Positions 43,005 through 57,302 of a stretch of DNA of 64,000 nucleotides are shown here, piece by piece (the stretch's first letter is position 1; each line of letters starts with the position of its first letter). Source of the stretch: Squalus acanthias. Its lineage: Eukaryota. The position numbers and the translations under genes are program-made. The notes beneath the pieces were generated by a model. It had not been told where the DNA came from. It worked only from the letters and a program-made list of their open reading frames with translations, and made no database searches. The stretch spans positions 62,744,001-62,808,000 of the forward strand of contig CM059430.1 in NCBI GenBank assembly GCA_030390025.1, written 5' to 3'.

Positions 43005-44360
43005 AACATAAGAATATAAGAACATAAGAAATTGGAGCAGGTGTAGGCCAGTCGGCCCTTCGAACCTGCTCTGCCATTTAATAAGATCATGGTTCATCTT
43101 CTACCTTAACTCCACTTTCCCACACTATCCCCATATTCCTTGGTTCCTTTAGTATCCAAAAATCTATCGATCTCTGTTCTGAATTTACTCAATGGCTAAG
43201 CATTCACAGCCCTCTGTGGTAGAGAATTCTAAAGATTCACAACCCTTTGTGTGAAGGAATTTCTCCTCATTTCAGTCCTAAATGGTCAACCCCTTATTCT
43301 GTGACTGTGATCCCCTAGTTCTAGACTCCCCAGCCGGGGGAAACAACCTCCCAGCATCTACCCTGTCATGTCCCTTAAGAATTTTATACAATTCAATGAG
43401 ATCACTTCTCAGTCTTCGAAACTCTAGTGAATATAAGCCTAGTCTACTCAATCTCTCCTCATAGGAAAATCCCCCCATCCCAGGAATCAGTCTCGAGAAC
43501 CTACATTGCACTCCCACTAAGGCAAGTATATCTTTCCTTAGGTAAGGAAACCAAAACTGTACGCAATACTCCAGGTGTGGTCTCACCAAGGCCCTATATA
43601 ATTGCAGTAATACGTCTTGATTCTTATACTCCAATCCTTTTGTAATAAAGGCTAACATACGATTTGTTTTCGTAATTGCTTGCTGTACCTGCATGTTAAC
43701 TTTCAGTGATTCATGTACAAGGACACCCAGTTCCCTCAGAAAACCAACATTTCCTAATCTCTCACCATTTAAAAAATATTCTGCTTTCTATTTTTCCTAC
43801 AAAAGTGGATAACTTTATATTCCATTTGCCATGATCTTGCCCACTCAATCAACCTGTCTATATCCATTTGCAGCCTCTTTGCATCCTCCTCACAACTGAC
43901 TTTCCCACCTAGCTTTGTATCATCAGCAAACTTAGATACATTGTACACAATTCATTGATATAGATTGCAAATAGCTGAGGCCCAAGCACTGATCCTTGCG
44001 GTACCCCATTAGTTACAGCCTGCCAATGCGAAATTTACCATAGAAGCATAGAAGATAGGAGCAGGAGTAGGCCATTCAGCCCCTCGAGCCTGCTCCGCCA
44101 TTTAATGAGATCATGGCTGATCATCCAAATTCAGTTTATTCCTAGTCACTGTTTTCTGTCCTTTAACCAATCCTTGCTAATGTTTACCCCCCCCAATCCC
44201 ATGAGCCCTAATTTTGTGTAATACACTCTGGTGTGGCAACTTATCAAATGCCTTATGAAAATTCAAATACACTACATCCACTGGTTCCCCCTTATCTATC
44301 TTGCTAGTTACAACCTCAAAACACTATAACAGATTTATAAAAAACGATTTCCCTTTCATG
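43005..44360 (-). mobile_element. CR1 LINE 3' portion
   Basis: LVRPHLEYCVQFW, tail repeats aacataag. Confidence 0.88.
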
Positions 44361-44844: not shown

Positions 44845-45803
44845 ACAACAATTGCATTTATATAGCACCTTTAACATAGTAAAACATTCGGAGCTGCTTC
44901 ACATGAGCACAATAAGATAAAAATTGACACCGAGCCAAAGAAGGAGATATTAGGACAGGTGACTAACAGCTTGATCAAAGAGATAGGTTTTAAGGAGATT
45001 CTTAAAGGAAGAGAGGTGGAGAGGCAGAGAGATTTAGAGAGGGAATTCCAGAGCGCATGGCCTAGACAGCTGAAGGCACAGTAGTGGGTTAAAGCAAGTG
45101 AGAGATGGAGAAGAGGTCAGAGTTGGAAGAATGCATAGTTCTCAGAGGGTGGTAGGGCTGGAGGAGGTTATAGAGATGGGGAGGGGCGAGAGCATGGAGG
45201 AATTTGCACACAAGGATGCAAATTTTTAAATGGAGGCGCTCAGAGACCGGGAGCCAATGTAGGTCAGTGAGCACAGGGGTGATGGATGAAAGGGGATTAG
45301 GTGCAAGATACAATATGGGGACCAGAGCTTTAGATGAGCTTAAATTTAGGAGGGTGGAAGATGGAAGGCCAGTCAGGAGAGCATTAGAATAGTTGAATCT
45401 GTAGGTGACAAAAGCATGGATGAGGGTTTCCGCAGGAGATGGGCTGAGGCAGGGGCGATATTTTGGAGGTAGTGGTGGAGGTGGGCTGTCTTGGTGATGG
45501 AGTGAACATGGGGTCAGAAGCTCAGCTCCAAGTCAAATAGGACGCAAAGGTTGTGAATAGTCTGATTCAGCCTGAGACAACCGATGGCTAGTGATCAGAG
45601 GTTCTGACAGGGGCTGAAAACAATGGACTTCCAAATGTTTAATTGGAGAAAATGTCAGTTCACCTAGGACTGAATGTCGAGCAAGCAGTCTGAGAACACA
45701 AAGGCAGTGGAGGGGTCGAGAGAGGTGGCGGTGAGTTAGGACCACGTACTTGTGGAACTTGATGTGCCTTTGTATGTTTTCGCCGAGGGGTAGCATGTAG
45801 ATG
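44845..45803 (-). mobile_element. L2-like LINE 3' portion, the target of the provirus insertion
   Basis: ITPVLTDLHWLPV; sequence continues at 57264. Confidence 0.75.
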
Positions 45804-47062
45804 TGTAAGGGGTATCTTAATGGGGTCAGCCTTCGCTTTCTGACACAGTGAGCGGCTCGAATCGCTCCCACACCCCTCTGGTTCCTAGACTTTGGACTTA
45901 TTTAGGGGTTGTGAACAAAATTGCAGTAAACAACAGGTACTGATGAAAGAATTTTACTTTATTAAAAGAAAAAGGTAAACTTGAAACACACTTATTACTT
46001 AAACACAGATTGGGGAGCACACGGTACAAGCGAGGGACAATGACAATATATCAAACAAAACCTTATCCCTCCCAAAGATCCCACTATCTAGCTAGGTTTT
46101 TGGTTTCAGGAGATCAGGGATAATGCTCACCAACGAATCCTTGACAGGATTTTAGAGTCTTTTGTTTAAAAGACTCCGTAAGGCCCTTGTTGCTGCGAGG
46201 TGTCCGATGGTCACTGAGGCAGTCGCTCTGGTTTCTTCTTGCGTGCTGGTCTATTTTCTGGCCTTCTTCCTCGTGGCTTGTGGTGGTTTTTGCTGGAGCA
46301 GGGAGAGAGCTGTGTCCACGTAGTCGGCGAGTCCGAAAGAGAGAGAAGTTATGGCACAGGCTTTTAATTATACTGTTTCTTTTTCGCGCCAAAAAAAACC
46401 CTTACTAAAACGGATTCCTTTAGGTTGCAAATGAACCGTGCTTAGTCCAATTGTTTAGTTTTGCCGGGCTTGCGAGTTCCGATGGCTTTTTCTCAGTGTT
46501 AAACATGTCTTGATCGTTTTCTGATTTAAACACAGCCTTATCTACGCGCCAAATCTCCACCCTATTGTCCTAGGTCTTTTGGCGGACTTTCTTAACTGCT
46601 CTGGTCGATACTTGGCTGATGGGTTTTTGATGGGATAATGGGCTATGAAACTGTGTGCTGGAAGTTTTATTGTCAGGAATCGGTTTTAGATTTCAAGCAT
46701 CCTGTTTGCACCTGGGGATTTCAATAGGGTTCTTGGTTTATTCATATTTGAATGTGTTTGTGAGTTTTTGCTTTGTCTCTTGCACCTTGGTAGGATTTGC
46801 AATGTAAACAATTCCCAGACAGCTTGATCTGTTCACTGCCTGGCCATGACCCTCGCAGCTTGTCTTGTGTCTGTGAAAGGTGTCTCTCCCAACAGTAAGA
46901 TTCAAAAGTCAGTTTCCTCAGGATTTTATCTTCCCTGATCTTTAGGTTTTTACACCAAATCACTTCACTTAGGTCCCATCATCCCAAGTTTTTATGAAAG
47001 GTCCAAAAATCACTCCCTTTAGGGCTCTGTTCGAGTTTCTGGGGGATTTGGCGAAGCCTACA
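45804..47062 (-). repeat. 3' LTR (1259 bp)
   Basis: tgtaagggg...gcctaca, adjacent to the PPT. Confidence 0.95.
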
Positions 47063-47073
47063 TCCCCCACTTT
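47063..47073 (-). promoter_or_regulatory. Polypurine tract
   Basis: AAAGTGGGGGA abutting the 3' LTR. Confidence 0.85.
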
Positions 47074-47344
47074 GATACTAAAACTGAATTAGTATCATTA
47101 GCAGGTGAGCAAAATTTCCGATCCCCGAAAACCAACCTTCCCCTGTATTACCTAAACTAAAAACCCAAACATACATTCCCCTTTTGAAAGTGGTGTTTCA
47201 GGTACATACAGGTAAGAATCTATCTTTATTTCACATCCAAGCACGGAGAGGGTCCGACACCCCTGCACAGCTTGGAAAAAACACATCATACACATCATAA
47301 AAATGACACAACACACATACAAATTTTTTATTAAAAGACAAAAT

Positions 47345-49698
47345 TCAAGGTTCGTTCCATCCCTGGCCATAGCCTTTATTTTGATGCACTTCCCAAGTCC
47401 CTTCGTGTCTGGAGCGGAGCTCCCCGTCCCTTCCGCTGCACTTTGTACACAGCAGGTAGAGAACTATCCCGAGCTGGCAGACCACCAAAAGATGGGAAGC
47501 CATCCTGATCCAGGAAGGCACCTCTATATTCCCGAAAATATCCCACCAGGGTGGAACTATTATATCCAAAATCTCTGCCCCTATTTCAACTGTTTTCTGT
47601 TCCAGGGTGTAGAAATGTTTTTGTGAAATCTCTACAGCTTTAAATAGGATGGTAAGATGTTCGGGTAGTGGGGGAATCTTATATCCAAAGTAAGTCACAT
47701 ACTTTTGCAGGTTGGTGATGTTTTCTGTTACAGTGAGGTTAACAGTGGAGGGTTCAGGAATGGGAACAATCCGTTCCTGGGCCACTTGAACTTCTGCCTC
47801 GGGTTTAAAGCAGAAACTGCTGTCACTTACCGGACACCAGAAGTGTCCATGCTGGTAGTGGGACGCACCTGTGGTGACACAATATGTCCCACCCCTTATA
47901 TATGCTACCTGTGAGGAAACATGGCTGTGTGCCATCACCTCCATGGTACAATTGATAGGTCGTGCGCCAGCAGCTTTAAACCCGCACTGTGGTTTGGAAT
48001 AGGCGTTCAAGTGCTGGGGACACTGTATTATGTGTGAACCCCGGCTCCGGCACCCGGAGAGCTCAGTACCTGTCATGGCGTGCTCCCACTTTATGACATA
48101 AGGTGGGACCGCTGTAAAACGGATGTGTGCACCCCTTGAATGACTCCAATGTTCTCCACCCTGTATACCGGTACGGGTCGGGCTGTCCCACTCATGACCG
48201 GCATTCTCACTACTATCCCCATGATAGTGTGATTTGAACGCCCACAATCTATTGGGACAGGGTAGGCTTCAGAGGCTAGACGAAATTGGCATGGGCTCAG
48301 CGAATTACTAAACGGGTGGAGGGCTGCGAGGTGCTTGTTGCTGATCCAGGAGGGGACTAAACCTTGCTTTAAATCCTCCAGGTTGCTACGGCCCTCGCCC
48401 AGCAACCATGCCCCGTACAGCACACACACCTCATTCTGTGCAGCCTGATCCGATGCATTCCTATCCTCCCGTATGAGTGCATTTACTGTTTTGGCATGCC
48501 TTTCCAATTCTGCAATAATTTCCTTTAAATGAACCGTCATAGCTTGGTCCTCATGTAGCTCTGAGCCTACCACTGTGTTCCCATCCTTCAGGATCTTTCT
48601 TAACTGGGTTTTTAAACCATTTATCTGTGTCTGTAATTCCATGTCATCCAGGCTATTTATTACAGAGGACCCTGTACTATAGGCAGTGAAAACATCATTC
48701 CAGGCTCCCCTTCTTTGTCTACCCGTGCCCATAGGGTTCTCAGGGTGTATTCTGTATAGCTCTACCTTGTCTATATTGGCAAAATCAAATTCGTAAAATT
48801 TCCTAAACATTTCCTTTAGCAGGGCCTGGTACAGCTGCTCCGTCTCCTTAGGACACCACTCAGGTAAGTATACCTCGGTAAGGTTTAATATTACTGAAGC
48901 TACTGCATAGTGCACCCCCTGGTATAGTACCTTTTCGGTTGGTACTAGGACTAACCCATTCCCTGGTCCCTTGGTGGTGGTAGGGCACTTTTCTTCCAGG
49001 GTTTTCGGTACCTGGGTCGTGGGTAGGGGCTTTCGGGTGTGTGCCACGAGTACAGTGGCATTAACTGGGACCGGAATGTGTGGGACCACGCACCCATGCA
49101 GGCTAGAATCCCACCCTATCCCCTCCCCGGCATCTTGCCATTGGCTGGAGAAGATGATGGATACCCCTGTGGGGCAGGCTTCCTCTGATCCCCACATACA
49201 AACATAGACTCCCTGTTCCGACTCCCACCACTTATCCCAACCATCACTCACTCCTCCTTGGGTCCCTGTGATTGTCCGGTGGGTGTCGTTCCCTAATCTT
49301 TCCCAGTCGGCTGTATGGTCCCCTGCGTCCCTGCTCAGCTTCCTGAGCCACCACCACCTATTCAGTGAAATCCGTCCCTTACAGGTAAGGCACACACGCT
49401 TCCCCTCGGTGACACTGACCCTTGTGGCAACGACCTGTATTCTGGGGCATGGGAGGGAGGCCTCCCCGTACGTGAACCCGGGCTGGTTGGAGTATTTAGT
49501 AGAGTTGGACCCCAGCCACCCTGGCCACCTTCCCTTGTGGAAGTAGATGGCGAGCTCCTCCACTCCCCGCTCACCACCCCCTGCGTTGACGACTGGTGCT
49601 CTCACTCCTGAGCACCCATAGATGTGGGAGTCCTCCACGTCACCTCGGTCACCGATGCTCACCCCTACCAGGGCGAGCAGGAGCAGAAACCTTGTCAT
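47345..49698 (-). pseudogene. env: env, ~784 aa class I fusion glycoprotein with N-terminal Ig-like domain; single frameshift at ~48133
   Basis: Signal peptide MTRFLLLLALVGVSIG, furin site RQRR (48720-48709), heptad region, Cys-rich region, C-terminal TM; candidate splice acceptor at 49712. Confidence 0.88.
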
Positions 49699-49899
49699 TC
49701 CGAAGTCCTTTCTGTAGGGGCACACACAAAACATATATCCATGTCCCAGAAAGGTTCTCTGGCTGGATAATTAATCAAGCCCTTAAACTTAAAAAAACTC
49801 TACAAACAACTAAACTAATGATAACCCATAACCACCAAAACTGCAATTACTTAAAACCGAAAATTCTGTACATTTGCCGCCCGTCTCCGGACGGCCAGG

Positions 49900-52800
49900 T
49901 TAAATCCTGTTTAGTCTCTGCCTTATGTGGCCTCTGGATGTCGTGTACACCTGGGTGTAGTGTGGCCTGTACCACCGGACCCAGAAGCCCTTCCTCAAAA
50001 CCGCTGGGGGTATCTTAACATCCCAGCTGCGTCCTGTGCTGCAGCACACTACCCCCTTTGGTGTGGCTGCAGCGCCCTCGTTCATATCTGTGGGCTCCTC
50101 CCAGCCTGAGGCTGCAGGCGGGGGACCCTTCTCTCTCTCTTCTCCCAGTACTACCTCTCCTGTGAAACCCTCACTGTTGGAGGCTGTAGGCTGGGAATCC
50201 CCAACTTTAGAACGCTCCCTGCTCTTGGGCGCTCTTCTTCGGGTTGCAACCCTTTTTGGGTGGGACCCTCTAAACAGATACACCTGTGGCCGCAGTAGCC
50301 TTTGCTGTGGTGTGCGGGGAAACCTTCTTAGGGCTCTGGCCACTGGGGGTGTGCTTGAGTCCCACATAATCGGTGGAGTGACCTCTGCTGTGAAACAACA
50401 CACTGTCCCTCCCGCTGCAGCTTGTGCGTCTGCCACAGCTGCGGCTGGCTGAGGATTTCTAACTTGGGGGCAGTCCACCTTTGCCGGCTGTTCCCTTTTA
50501 GGTTTAAACAGTTTGCATTGGTTGATGTGAAACCACTTTGTATGGCGGGGCATCTTTATGGCATAGACCATGGGGCTTGCCTTGTCTACAATGTTGTAGG
50601 GCCCCATGTACAATGGTTCGAAACTCCCTACCCGGGCAAAATTTCTCACTATGACCTGATCTCCAACCTCCCACTCGTGGTGCTTGCGGGGTTCCAGCAG
50701 CAATCGGTTACCCCGATGCTGTTTTCCCATGTTACTCGCAGCCTGCCAGTGGACCTGTTTAAGGTGGTCCAACAGATTCCTGACGAATCTGTCCCGGTTC
50801 ACCTCCCTGAGCTGCCCTTCCGTGAGCACCGGGGCTAGCACATGGGTGGGGGTCCGCATAATCCTGCCAGTCATGAGCTGGTGTGGGGAATACCCCGTGC
50901 TTTTTGACTGGCTGGCCCGGATCCCCATTAGGACCAACGGTAAGGCTTCTACCCACTTTTTGGGTGAGTCTCCCATCTCCTTTCGCAGCCTTTCTTTGAT
51001 GGTACGATTTAAACGCTCCACAATCCCTGATGACTGTGGGTTGTGGGCGACGTGCCATTTCCCTTCTATGCCGAGTACCCTGAGGGTCTCTTGCATGACC
51101 TGCCCAGTAAAGTGACTCCCCTGGTCTGACTCCACATACTGTGGGAGCCCCCATCGTGAGAACACTTCCCTGACCAGGATCCTGGCTGTACCCAAAGCGG
51201 TAGCTGTTCGACATGGAAAAGCTTCCACCCACTTTGAGAACACATCCACCAGGACTAGGCAGTATTTGTAGCCTCCCTGAGCGGTGGGTAGGGGCCCGAT
51301 GTAGTCGACCTGGATCGACTGCCATGGTCCCTCTACCCTCCTGATGTGTCCCATAGATACCTTCCTTTTCTGGGGGTCAGGGTTGTTAGCAGCACACACC
51401 AGACAGCCTGCACAGAACTCACGGACATCCTCCCTCAGTCCTGGCCACCATCCTGCCTGTTCCACCCGCTGCCAGGTGGTCTCAGGCCCGGGATGCCCCA
51501 CTCCTGGACCCTCATCGGCCAGTTGGAGGAATTCCCTTCTGTGCTGCTGCGGCACTACCCATTGTTCCCCCCTGAACAGCATGCCTTCTTTGTGGGTGAT
51601 GGTTGCTGCGCCGTATGGGCCTTCCACCTTCTCCCCTCTAGCCAGCGTTTCCAGGACAGTTTTTAGGATGGGATCCTGTGCCTGGACCGTCTTTAGGTCC
51701 GGGGTCAATGCTACCCCTGCACTCCCTTGGGTCCCTCCTCTGCCTCTGATTGCTGCTACCGGGTTTGATCCATATGGATCCCACAACGTGCCAGTACTGG
51801 CGCCCTCTTTGGCCAGCATGTCGGCTTGGTGATTGCCCTCTGCGCGGGGCTCTACCTTGGAATGGGCCTTCACCTTTTGGATGTAGACCCTACCTTCCTC
51901 CCCTACTGCCCTCATGATATTCTCCAACAGAGGCTTGATGGCCAGGGGTCTCCCATCAGCGGAGATGTATCCACGACGGGACCAGATGGCCAGCTACACT
52001 GTACATGAATTTCATGTGAACATGCTGTCCGATCAAATCGTGTATGGGGTAGGGAATTCCTCGGGGGGTGTGACTACATACACCACCGCAGACAGTTCAG
52101 CCTGCTGGGCACTCATGGTACTGGGGAGCTTGATTGCCAGAGCAATGCCTGCCTCTGGGTTATAAATCCCACACCCTGTGAGTCGTTTTCCAGCTGATAC
52201 TGTGCTTGAACCGTCCACATAGATTTCGCGGCCTGTGGGGTGTATCCCAGCTCGCAAACCTATGTTGACTTCCCATACCCCTTCAACGGAACACCGGTGG
52301 GCTGTCCCTGAGTAAATCATGTTGGCTGTGAGCTTTGGCTCGTAGAGACCTTTTACCCTCAGATCCATTTGTGAGAGAAGCAGGGTCCAGCGAGCAATGC
52401 GGGCACTGCTCACTGTCCCATCTTTAATTCTCCCATCCAAGAGCATCTGGGTGGGCGTGTGGTGAGTGAGGAGTGTGATGGGAGAGGTGCCTGTGAAGAT
52501 CAATGATCTTTTCACAGCCCAGTGAGTGGCTAGGAGGTGCCTCTCACAGTTGGAGTAGCTCCTCTCCACATCAGTGAGTATTCTGGAGGAGTAAACCACT
52601 GGTCTCAGCTTGCCATGCCTCTCTTGGAGCAGCACTGCACTCAGACTGTCCCCACTGGCTGCTACCTCCAGGAAAAACTCTTCCCCTCCATCAATCGCCC
52701 CTAGAGCCGGTGCGGTCTGCAGATCTCTCTTAAGTTTCACAAAGGCAGCCTCGCAACCCTCATCCCAAACCCACTCCACTCCCTTGTGTAGGAGTCGGAG

Positions 52801-54174
52801 CAGAGGGGCTGCTGTGGCTGCGTAATCCTCAATGAAATCTCTGCAGTACCCAGTTAGCCCAAGAAAAGACCTTACTCCTGTAACTGTGTTGGGGGCTGGT
52901 AACTCCTGAACTGCTTCCCTTCTAGCTTTGTCAATGGCCCTCTCCCCTGCTCGCACAGCCAGGCCCAGGAATTTGACTTCCCGCTGGCCAATCTGTGCCT
53001 TTTTGGGGTTTACTTTAAAGCCCTCTTGCCTGAGCAGTTCCAGCAGTTCTGCCAGAAGGGGACCATGTTCCTCTCCCTCATCGGTAAAGAGGAGTAGGTC
53101 GTCCACATACTGGACCAGCTGATGGGGCCTGCTGAAGCCCTTCAAGCAATTCGCCATACATTGGTGAAAAATGCTTGGGCTGTTGTGGAAACCCTGGGGC
53201 AGACAGTTCCATGTGTGCTGTTGGCCTTTAAATGTAAAGGCGAACTTGTACTGATCCTCTCTCCTTAGAGAGATGGACCAGAACCTGTTGGAAATATCCA
53301 GCACTGTAAAGGTGTTCGCAGATGCTGGGATACTTCCAATGAGGTCGGCTATGGCTGCAACCGTGGGGGCACAGGCGGGGATGTTTCGGTTGAGCACTCG
53401 ATAGTCTACTGTGGCCCTCCAGGAGTTGTCTGGTTTTCTAACCGGCCACAGTGGGGAGTTCACGTGGGTAACTATAGGTCTCAATACCCCCTGCTTGACT
53501 AAAGAAGTCAAAGCCGTTTCCAAGTCTGTCTCAGCTTCCCTGGGGAAGTTATACTGCTTTTGTGGGCGGTTCATGGGGTCCCCAATCACACTAACCTCGA
53601 CCCCGGTTACCCTCCCACAGTCGTGCTTGTGAGTGGCAAATGCTGCGAGGTATTCCTGCACAAATGCCTGGTACTCCATTGGAGTGTTACTGACCATGAG
53701 TTCGAGGTCGTAACCCTCCTTTGGTTTTACTGTGCACAAGGTCCCCTTGCCTTGTGCCTCCGAGATGACTGCTACCTCACTACCCTTTTGGGTACATGCT
53801 CCCCATAGACAGTGGTTCCTTAAATCCACTAAAATCCTGTGGCCTGTGATAAAGTCGGCCCCCAGGATCCCCTTCCCTTCTTGCTCCCACTTCATTAGGA
53901 CACAGGTCCACTTGGTGTGGAGCGTTCCCAAATGAATGGACAGCGGAATGGAGAATGAGCCAGCCTGCTCGTTACCTGTGAATCCCACTAGGCTGTACGG
54001 GACCCCGTTAGACAGAGGTGAAGTGGCTGGGTTATCTGAATAAATGAGGGTGCTCGAAGCTCCTGTGTCTAACAGATAGGTCCCTTCTACCTTTTCTACC
54101 TCCATCTTAACATGCGGTCTCTTCCAGGCATCATACTCGAGGGGACACAGGTAGACCGGCTGTGCTAGCTCCAG
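49900..54174 (-). pseudogene. pol: pol: protease, RT, tether RNase H, RNase H, integrase (three clustered stops)
   Basis: LLDTGA; LPQGFHNSP and YVDD; FFLEVAAS..AVLLQ..RPVVYSSR; IYVDGSS..AQQAEL..SDS; IQVDYIG/ESDQG/VERLN DDE triad; GPY motif. One frame, stops only at 52035, 52014 and 51996. Confidence 0.95.
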
Positions 54175-55999
54175 TCATGCCTCTGGGTTGGGTGGGGCAG
54201 ATGGGATTAGAGAGCCAGTGGCTGTAGCCACCTTCCCTGGGCCATCAAACAGGACTCTGATGGCCGCTACTATTGTGTCCAGTGTGGGGGAAGAGGTCGG
54301 TGCCTCTACTTTTGGGGCAGGAGTTGGGGACTTCTTTGCTAGGCTATCCGTCCAGGGATTCCTACAGTCCTTTCTCCAGTGCCCAGTCTTCCCGACACCC
54401 GAAGCAGCTACGCTTCGTGTCGGAAGGTTTACCACCTTCCTGGTGCCACTCCTTCTTATCCTGACTGGGCTTTATCTCATGCACCTTCCCTTTCGGTGGG
54501 GTGTCTTCAGCTCCCCTACCGTTCCGGTAGGCTAGGGTCAGTTGCCTGACCACTGCCTCCTCGGTGACCCGGGGATCTCTTGGGTCAAACCAAAGCTCAG
54601 CCTTGGCTTTGACTCATGGCAAGCTGTTTGCCACTAGGCTACGGAGCCAGTGGGCCAGCTCGTCCCTGTTCAGGTTAGCCCTGTCGAGAGCCCCATTACA
54701 AGCACCCCTGTACACCGGCCACAGCCTGTCTGCGAAAGCCTGTGGGGTCAACCCTGCGAGCTGCACTGTTTTCTCCACCCGGGAGAAAGGACTTCCCTCA
54801 TTCATTCCCGTGGCCTCTAAAACTTCTTCTCTGACGGCCGCATACCTGTTCTGTCCTCTCTTGCTCTCAGTAGAGAGGGACTGGTATAATTTGCCATCTA
54901 ATGAGAACAGGAGCATTTTTGCCATTTCAGCATCGTCACAATCATTGATGCCTGCTGACTGCTCTACCTCCATGAAGTGGACTGAGGTGTCTTCCTTTTG
55001 GGTAAGTTTACTCAGGTGGCTTACCATAGCCCTAAGCTGTTGTGTACCGTGGAGAGCCAAGAATTGACTTTCAAGGGGTCCCTGACCTCCACCACCGGCG
55101 GGCGGGCCGAATTTTTGCTGTCATGCTCGGCACATTGGCCCTGGCTCCGACTTCTCCTGCATCGGTTCGCCCCCCTCTCCCTGCTGCCAGACCGAGTCAA
55201 AACTCGGCGCCACAGGTGCTGGTGTGCACTCCCTGTCCACCTCACAGATTGTCTGCCCCTCCTGCTGCCTAACCAAGCTTCTCCTTGGCGCCACAGGTGG
55301 TGGTCAAACAGTCTCCCCCTGCTCCTCCAGGTCTACCTGGGCCGCACCCGGGCTTATCAGGCACAGCATGCCTTTTGTCTTGGACAGAGCAAGGTTCAGA
55401 CTCTCAATCTGCTTCTGACAGGTGCCGTGGTCCCCTATCTCAAACTCCCTTGTACTGGCTACTCTGTAGGCTGCCTGAACATCATTTAACTTCTGTGTGA
55501 GTTCCCTTAATTGCTTGGCAAGGCGGGTGTTCTCTTCCCACAATGCCAGTTCACTACTTTTGTCCTCGGTGGCCTGACACTGGAGGTATCCCTTACTGGC
55601 ACGGTGTTCCTCCAGCATCTGTGACTGTTCCTGATCTTTTGTGCCGAGCTCTGCTAACAACCTATCCCCTGCTATAGCTCTGGCACGGGACAGTTGGCTT
55701 TCTTCCTTTAGCTCTTCTGTGAGAGCCTGAATGCGCTTCCCCATAAGCTGCATTTGTTTCTGGGAGCAAACCAACCATATGGCTTTCTCCACAGACTTAT
55801 TGTATTCCTTGCTCTCAGTCCATGCAGCTGCAGCGTCCATAGGACGTTCAGCATGCAACAGCCTGAGGACCCATTTCTTGGTGATATTTACTTTTTTATA
55901 TACATAGGATGACATCCTCTCTTCCATTTTTGTTCTCTCCTCAAAACCAGCATTTACTGCTTCACAACCCTTTTGCCAAAGTCCTGCCGCGGTCGCCAT
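54175..55999 (-). pseudogene. gag: gag, disrupted (coiled-coil N-terminus, capsid-like region, CCHC knuckle)
   Basis: ORF pieces 55999-55304, 55060-54614, 54553-54362, 54435-54175; the knuckle CFGC-GKTGHWRKDC is split by a +1 frameshift near 54394. Confidence 0.85.
55981..55998 (-). promoter_or_regulatory. Primer binding site, tRNA-Arg(TCG)
   Basis: Minus strand TGGCGACCGCGGCAGGAC, 4 nt inside the 5' LTR; the plus strand reads GTCCTGCCGCGGTCGCCA, which I recognise as the 3' end of vertebrate tRNA-Arg(TCG) plus CCA. Confidence 0.85.
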
Positions 56000-56002
56000 T
56001 TA

Positions 56003-57263
56003 TGTAAGGGGTATCTTAATGGGGTCAGCCTTCACTTTCTGACACAGTGAGTGGTTCGAATCGCTCCCACGCCCTCTGGTTCCTAAACTTTGGACATATT
56101 TAGGGGTTGTGAACAAAATTGCAGTAAACAACAGGTTCTGATGAAAGAATTTTACTTTATTAAAAGAAAAAGGTAACAAACTTGAAACACACTTATTACT
56201 TAAACACAGATTGGGGAGCACACGGTACAAGCAAGGGACAATGACAATATATCAAACAAAACCTTATCCCTCCCAAAGATCCCACTATCTAGCTAGGTTT
56301 TTGGTTTCAGGAGATCAGGGATAATGCTCACCAACGAATCCTTGACAGGATTTTAGAGTCTTTTGTTTAAAAGACTCCGTAAGGCCCTTGTTGCTGCGAG
56401 GTGTCCGATGGTCACTGAGGCAGTCGCTCTGGTTTCTTCTTGCGTGCTGGTCTATTTTCTGGCCTTCTTCCTCGTGGCTTGTGGTGGTTTTTGCTGGAGC
56501 AGGGAGAGAGCTGTGTCCACGTAGTCGGCGAGTCCGAAAGAGAGAGAAGTTATGGCACAGGCTTTCAATTATACTGTTTCTTTTTCGCGCCCAAAAAACC
56601 CCTTACTAAAACGGATTCCTTTAGGTTGCAAATGAACCTTGCTTAGTCCAATTGTCTAGTTTTGGCAGGCTTGTGAGTTCCGATGGCTTTTGCTCAGTGT
56701 TAAACATGTCTTGATCGTTTTCCGATTTAAACATAGCCTTATCTACGCGCCAAATCTCCACCCTATTGTCCTAGGTCTTTTGGCGGGCTTTCTTAACTGC
56801 GCTGGTCGATACTTGGCTGATGGGTTTTTGATGGGATAATGGGCTATGAAACTGTGTGCTGGAAGTTTTATTGTCAGGAATCGGTTTTAGATTTCGAGCA
56901 TCCTGTTTGCACCTGGGGATTTCAATAGGGTTCTTGGCTTATTCATATTTGAATGTGTTTGTGAGTTTTTGCTTTGTCTCTTGCACCTTGGTAGGATTTG
57001 CAATGTAAACAATTCCCAGACAGCTTGATCTGTTCACTGCCTGGCCACGCCCCTTGCAGCTTGTCTTGTGTCTGTGAAAGGTGTCTCTCCCAACAGTAAG
57101 ATTCAAAAGTCAGTTTCCTCAGGTTTTTATCTTCCCTGATCTTTAGGTTTTTACACCAAATCACTTCACTTAGGTCCCATCATCCCAAGTTTGTATGAAA
57201 GGTCCAAAAATCACTCCCTTTAGGGCTCTGTTCGAGTTTCTGGGGGATTTTGCGAAGCCTACA
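56003..57263 (-). repeat. 5' LTR (1261 bp)
   Basis: tgtaagggg...gcctaca, adjacent to the PBS; roughly 30-35 differences from the other LTR by manual count. Confidence 0.95.
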
Positions 57264-57302
57264 GATGAGAATTAGGAGGGGGCCAAGTGTAGATCTAAGG
57301 GG

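Follow-up and report, generated by a model that had tools for sequence, protein, structure and literature searches.

In the genome of Squalus acanthias we analyzed a stretch of 64,000 nucleotides (the window) that carries an env gene on its minus strand (ORF 48091-49734, 547 aa). A reading of the sequence alone had suggested that an immunoglobulin (Ig) domain is built into the front part of this viral envelope protein. The locus raises the questions whether the head of the protein is indeed an Ig domain, to which group of viruses the protein belongs, from where the head came and what it would do for the virus.

The provirus and its env gene

The env gene is located downstream of pol in a minus-strand provirus comprising window 45804-57263. 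Its LTRs are 97.4% identical over 1262 columns, both end with TG...CA, and a 4-bp target-site duplication (57264-57267 and 45800-45803) flanks the element, for which reasons we regard the insertion as young. A primer-binding-site-like TGG stretch is found immediately inside the 5’ LTR. The following parts were distinguished:

56003..57263, minus strand: 5’ LTR with TG...CA ends (LTR-vs-LTR alignment)
54365..55999, minus strand: gag-like region in several pieces split by stops, so named from its position
52033..54174, minus strand: pol part 1 with protease, RT, degenerate RNase H (tether) and the start of a second RNase H (Pfam: RVT_1 1.5e-32, RT_RNaseH, RNase_H)
49900..51993, minus strand: pol part 2 with the RNase H end and integrase (Pfam), in frame with part 1, one stop between them
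49651..49698, minus strand: env signal peptide, residues about 13-28 (hydropathy peak; putative cleavage site)
49450..49650, minus strand: pre-Ig head segment, residues 29-95, conserved among shark and ray relatives
49141..49449, minus strand: I/V-set Ig domain, residues 96-198, with Cys118 and Cys179 on predicted strands B and F (profiles, Pfam, predicted structure)
48988..49140, minus strand: post-Ig segment and Thr/Pro-rich linker, residues 199-249, by composition; the fastest-evolving part of env
48721..48987, minus strand: F2-like part of the fusion module, first motif C-P...GP..GLVL, shared with published Loki Envs
48709..48720, minus strand: furin-type site RQRR, residues 339-342, from the sequence
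47345..48708, minus strand: F1-like part with putative fusion peptide, heptads, Cys-rich region and transmembrane helix (about 47447-47503)
45804..47062, minus strand: 3’ LTR with a polypurine tract just before it (LTR-vs-LTR alignment)

A frameshift near window 48130 breaks env within the F1-like part, and gag and pol of this copy are interrupted by stops as well. The gag-like region had no significant Pfam match; its first ORF (window 55307-55999) appears rich in coiled coil. According to the accessible part of PMC7947760, an smc-like 5’ gene is present in some Loki elements. Our ORF survey detected no separate attachment gene between pol and the 3’ LTR of the provirus. By hydropathy, the peptide following RQRR lies outside the most hydrophobic windows.

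The provirus belongs to an abundant family. A genome search with the Ig domain yielded 5606 candidates at first look; 150 of them were scored, each matching at 90–100% identity. There are at least 150 young copies in this genome and probably thousands. Named close relatives of the Env protein, as retrieved by protein searches, come from sharks and rays.

One contig assembled from run X3 joins the env signal-peptide region to a region past the end of env (window 47220-49648), skipping 2427 bases and carrying 234 other letters in between; it may represent an internally deleted derivative. Contigs of four presumed RNA runs cover env without a canonical splice joint, and contigs as such cannot show transcription.

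A predicted immunoglobulin domain in the Env head

The motif on which the sequence-only reading relied is present at residues 97-196 (window 49147-49446), with Cys118 and Cys179 61 residues apart as had been stated. We recognized V/I-set domains by B- and F-strand cysteines about 55–75 residues apart, a Trp on the C strand and the motif G-x-Y-x-C, all of which occur in the window family. All 27 loci fetched, a number that includes the window’s own locus and counts four places twice, keep both cysteines (strands B and F) and the Trp run of strand C; the Tyr of G-x-Y-x-C is missing from one locus. In profile alignments the Cys, Trp and G-x-Y-x-C positions of the family are in register with those of CRTAM and JAM-A. 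The E strand, described earlier as atypical, is so in the window copy, but this is partly private to that copy, since two adjacent substitutions are absent from 25 other loci.

The domain lies between the signal peptide and the fusion module as proposed, yet not directly behind the signal peptide, as about 67 conserved residues intervene. This pre-Ig segment (67 residues, 49450-49650) is under purifying selection with a dN/dS of 0.16–0.18; it had no family match and gave no confident structure model. The Thr/Pro-rich linker following the domain is real but modest, with a T/P/S content of 41% across residues 226-257.

Searched singly, the window domain matches Pfam Ig_3 with E 0.011, below the curated cut-off, and a phmmer search of the window stretch against PDB returned no match. 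All seven family members match Ig_3 too, the best of them with E 2.7e-4; their scores, about 17–20 bits in the rows listed, stay short of the curated cut-off of 30 bits. Profiles were more sensitive to IgSF chains. With the seven family members the CRTAM V domain came first in PDB (E 0.013, 92 positions), and 7 of the 11 matches belonged to the IgSF. A profile of 13 rows, made of the seven members and six divergent viral heads and containing zero host sequences, retrieved 267 sequences at E<=10; the best 60 of these 267 are all IgSF by name, with JAM-A at the top (E 9.8e-8). Since this alignment joins two weakly related groups, the other viral heads were also searched separately, and all 36 matches were IgSF, led by contactin-2 (E 2.9e-6). 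Among the ten best ESM Atlas matches of the domain that have a family, nine fall into the family or clan of the top one, an Ig family, at about 0.9; the two top rows are unnamed clusters.

The domain of a sister copy, L008, which is 97% identical to the window domain, was modelled with AlphaFold from the 13-row alignment of viral heads. The prediction is a beta-sandwich composed of strands A, B, C, C’, D, E, F and G, in which strands B and F bear the two cysteines (pLDDT 78, pTM 0.73, five models at 61–78); the confidence of this model depends on having aligned two head groups of weak kinship. VIA-align matched the model to myomesin I-set domains (Z 10.2, rmsd 2.2–2.5 Å over 90–91 residues) and found 161 chains at Z>=8. 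The best 50 Foldseek rows, identified by title and chain length, were antibody V domains, nanobodies, basigin and CD8 with TM 0.45–0.60. The check by AlphaFold and Foldseek led to Ig-type neighbours, and profiles, Ig_3, Atlas and model agree on the V/I-set signature that had been read from the letters. A first AlphaFold model of the whole head, made from the shallow alignment A2, reached only pLDDT 36, with mostly V-set domains as neighbours at Z<=3.9, and was not used as support; a PDB search with A2 was void because zinc fingers of a chimeric gene model had contaminated that alignment.

Could the resemblance be convergent, the head being a generic viral beta-sandwich that does not descend from a cellular V/I-set domain? 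That all single-sequence scores stay below curated cut-offs and that phmmer came back empty would suit this view, which we nevertheless consider very improbable: two independent viral profiles retrieve IgSF chains with B-Cys, C-Trp, E strand and G-x-Y-x-C in register, and the Atlas matches agree with them. The window head domain almost certainly has an Ig fold by prediction, and we describe it as a predicted, conserved I/V-set Ig domain in a Loki-like Env.

Kinship of the virus and the heads of its relatives

Lokiretroviruses have been described with an LTR-gag-pol-env plan and an F-like Env (Wang and Han, PMC7947760; PMC9040795; in the accessible parts of both). The window provirus shares this plan as well as the dual RNase H (tether and RH). 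Its Env resembles the published ones in having a signal peptide, an R-x-K/R-R site (here RQRR), coiled coils and a transmembrane helix, and by eye the motif GP..G[IL]VL, which opens the fusion module, is shared with them. The difference lies in front of this motif. In 22 of the 23 Env entries compared from the supplement of PMC7947760, which reports 24 species, it directly follows the signal peptide in a form of the type GP..G[IVT].L, the 23rd entry being partial; in the window Env about 220 residues including the Ig domain precede it, and it starts after residue 250. As far as this supplement goes, the earlier statement that such Envs do not normally begin with an Ig domain holds. We classify the window element as apparently lokiretrovirus-like by genome plan, Env anatomy and opening motif. 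In PDB its RT matches gammaretroviral RT best, foamy-virus RT next and Ty3 RT third. This would extend Loki-like viruses to cartilaginous fishes, where a screen of three chondrichthyan genomes reported none according to the available text (PMC7947760).

F-type fusogens are common to paramyxoviruses, baculoviruses, errantiviruses and lokiretroviruses. For the F1-like part of the window Env, ESM Atlas neighbours are Baculo_F, Fusion_gly and gypsy Env clusters at 0.94–0.95, with a recognition value of 1728, below the mark of 2300. None of 15 sequences matched PF00523 (fusion glycoprotein F0) by hmmscan, and whole-Env profiles retrieved no F proteins from PDB. From the anatomy, the shared opening motif and the Atlas neighbours we consider an F-type fusogen probable. 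A probable class I F-type fusogen, a furin site and the Atlas neighbours are what the window Env has in common with the errantivirus F-type Env and with F of paramyxo- and pneumoviruses. In contrast, the errantivirus Env is given as four conserved domains, with no mention of Ig in the part of the preprint that is accessible (bioRxiv 10.1101/2023.10.26.564294), and errantiviruses are Ty3/gypsy elements, whereas the window pol is retrovirus-like.

A whole-Env profile searched over 1.84 billion representatives gave 45 matches at E<=0.001. The long distant relatives have the fusion module in common and differ in the front part:

P0018, bamboo shark: Ig-like head (Ig_3 E 0.098; UniRef name ‘Ig-like domain-containing’)
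P0032 and P0043, frogs: Ig-like Cys/Trp head pattern, heads 35% identical (Pfam E 0.22 for P0032, no match for P0043)
P0047, Logan contig: V-set E 0.0015, head without disulfide
P0016, P0028 and P0033, sharks: Cys-rich head, no Ig match
P0045, coelacanth: no head

The Cys-rich head comprises about 130 residues that are 40–44% identical among its three bearers; Pfam gave no match for it on P0016 or P0028. In the P0043 cluster from the frog Mantella, 16 Env proteins are nearly identical, mostly 677 aa long and marked by the Ig-like head pattern, which suggests a recently expanded amphibian family as judged from the proteins. In the shark gene models P0006 and P0008, pieces of env are fused to zinc-finger or Niban-like coding sequence; these are probably annotation chimeras or an exonised provirus.

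Further env lineages are present in the Squalus genome itself, with 83 matches at 33–81% identity to P0018. In the heads of 21 of 30 divergent loci (two of the 21 covering one copy) we found the motif L-x-[WFC]-[PL]-x4-[RK]-H-x-G, which corresponds to Ig strands E-F. Pfam Ig models matched two of seven divergent heads (L043 E 7.7e-4, L045 E 0.05) and none of the other five. As in the window family, none of the Pfam Ig matches of relatives and divergent heads attained its curated cut-off. Five of the divergent loci were checked for pol upstream; four have it, and the fifth has a fragment of RNase H. Searched alone against PDB, the L043 head gave a best E of 0.23 and was uninformative; the whole P0047 sequence had no PDB match.

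We then compared the heads with each other. By hhalign, the window head aligned to that of L043 with E 1e-4 (prob. 57%, 85 columns), an extra Cys-Pro past strand F being common to both, and to the profile of the other heads with E 8e-4 (prob. 24%). Against the latter it beat 288 of 300 shuffles, 12 scoring equally high; in the same test no shuffle out of 300 scored as high as P0003, and 43 did so for P0002. This gives weak indications, at the sequence level, of a common descent of the window head with the other heads. In trees of the fusion module Ig-type heads stand on both sides of the midpoint, these trees being midpoint-drawn and long branches meeting in them (P0047 with P0045). Such a pattern would fit an old origin of the Ig head followed by replacement and loss. 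The copy L058 / L043 (G000:C12, about 46.24 Mb) has an env fusion module very distant from that of the window and a pol 44–78% identical to the window pol; pol of the other divergent loci checked is 28–63% identical to the window’s, mostly 30–45%. An env exchange between lineages is possible for L058 / L043.

Origin and proposed role of the head

The sequence-only reading had proposed that the virus captured a host IgSF domain. A cellular origin of the Ig head is likely, as fold and profile matches suggest, but no donor is recognizable and the event was apparently not a recent one of the window virus. By Foldseek and VIA-align, no solved host IgSF chain is more than 23% identical to the domain, and the best structural or profile match changes with the method (CRTAM, JAM-A, basigin, myomesin). 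Protein searches with the window domain returned virus-derived relatives only. The genome search recovered the expected sister proviruses in abundance, but no donor was recognized, the matches being swamped by proviral copies. Further searches of this genome, made with other heads and no positive control, found for the L043 head only its single occurrence and for the P0047 head nothing. A tblastn search against phage gave 6 chance matches (E>=2). Because no host donor is recognizable at 23% identity or less, the capture is probably old, and it would be common to or repeated in other lineages; its history may have been one ancient capture with subsequent divergence or a series of captures.

Pairwise comparisons with four copies from other subfamilies, three of them from one subfamily, gave a dN/dS of 0.15–0.28 for the Ig domain in 4 of 4 cases, 0.29–0.61 for the linker (residues 199-257) and, where dS is unsaturated, 0.07–0.09 for the fusion core. 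From the purifying selection on the domain we conclude that the head was functional during virus replication. Its dN/dS above that of the fusion core is as expected for an exposed binding part.

We rather favour a role of the Ig domain as a modular, exchangeable receptor-binding head that is joined to an F-type fusogen by the Thr/Pro linker. After furin cleavage at RQRR the head of about 220 residues would stay on the F2-like outer subunit, sit at the tip of the trimer and grip a cell-surface protein, probably another member of the IgSF. Paramyxoviruses carry attachment on a separate H/HN/G protein, and the head would supply this function. An ancient acquisition from a host IgSF gene is the probable source of the domain, which would since have diverged along with the clade of viruses carrying it and sometimes been replaced or lost. 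Judging from the comparison of relatives, the Ig head has likely long served across the clade as a receptor-binding module that can be exchanged. Against this reading, the headless Loki Envs and P0045 show that this class of fusogen is able to spread without a head.

Alternatively, the head could be a structural cap or trigger that stabilises the pre-fusion trimer or aids folding, with receptor binding residing in the fusion module. Strong purifying selection and the many conserved Cys and Trp residues agree with such a cap, and the headless relatives must attach to cells by other means. We consider it unlikely, however, as the head is swapped for unrelated sequence or missing where the fusion module can still be aligned, and the variable linker parts it from the core, together with which an element packed tightly against it should have evolved.

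An immune decoy was the other role envisaged beside receptor binding in the sequence-only reading: displayed on virions or on cells that express Env, the head would pass for a host IgSF ligand and hold immune cells in check. Herpes- and poxviruses use stand-alone Ig genes in this way, and the nearest viral predicted structures to the Ig head are Ig proteins of herpes-, pox- and adenoviruses (E 0.009–0.1), matches that are weak and at the level of the fold only. Those proteins likewise have V/I-set domains but are stand-alone immune modulators outside a fusion protein; going by them, an Ig domain in a virus is nothing unusual, but it occurs there as a separate protein. The P0047 head with its V-set match (E 0.0015) also speaks for a decoy; we take it to resemble disulfide-less V domains of the CD2/SLAM/CEACAM type. 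A mimic would be expected to stay near its template, which is at odds with the low identity to solved host chains, and the two host-like heads, L043 and P0047, had no host match in the search of this genome made without positive control. A decoy thus appears quite unlikely, and position, selection and head exchange lead us to favour receptor binding over it.

On the level of the clade we tentatively propose, as a view just short of probable, that sharks, rays and amphibians carry an undescribed group of retrovirus-like elements whose entry proteins are composed of a host IgSF head and an F-type fusogen, the head having been captured or exchanged several times (I/V-set Ig, CD2/CEACAM-like V, Cys-rich, none). 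If true, this would be a natural and repeated way for a paramyxovirus-type fusogen to work without a separate attachment protein.

Two other Envs offer a comparison. Gammaretroviral Env has a variable receptor-binding domain, a proline-rich region and a conserved remainder. The window Env follows a similar logic, with an N-terminal head that varies, a Pro/Thr linker and a fusion part that is conserved. The likeness is one of layout; the gammaretroviral receptor-binding domain is not known to belong to the V/I-set of the IgSF, nor the gammaretroviral fusogen to the F type. For the coronavirus spike S1-NTD, descent from a host galectin has been proposed (PMC8560429, in its accessible part). There too, going by that part, a host-type domain, encoded at the 5’ end of the gene for a class I fusogen, serves attachment and diverged later, but it has a galectin fold in another virus and fusogen, while heads in the window clade vary in kind or are absent. 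This galectin-like spike domain would have its parallel in a retroviral entry protein that incorporates an IgSF domain of cellular origin.

The word ‘immunoglobulin’ is absent from the accessible text of PMC7947760, PMC9040795, bioRxiv 10.1101/2023.10.26.564294 and a 2026 review of ERV structure (PMC13709493). In the literature searched, with subscription journals and bioRxiv supplements outside it, we found no description of an Ig head on a retroviral F-type fusogen. What appears to be new here is the Ig head on a Loki-like Env and the differing heads across the clade; the plan of the Loki Env was already known. How F-type fusogens of retroelements recognise cells becomes approachable through a separable, foldable Ig head as a small soluble domain.

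Outside the provirus, an ORF fragment at window 43278-43694 resembles an RT tail, and dispersed repeats of the families D1, D2, D7 and D13 also occur in the window; we take both to be probably pieces of CR1-type LINEs.
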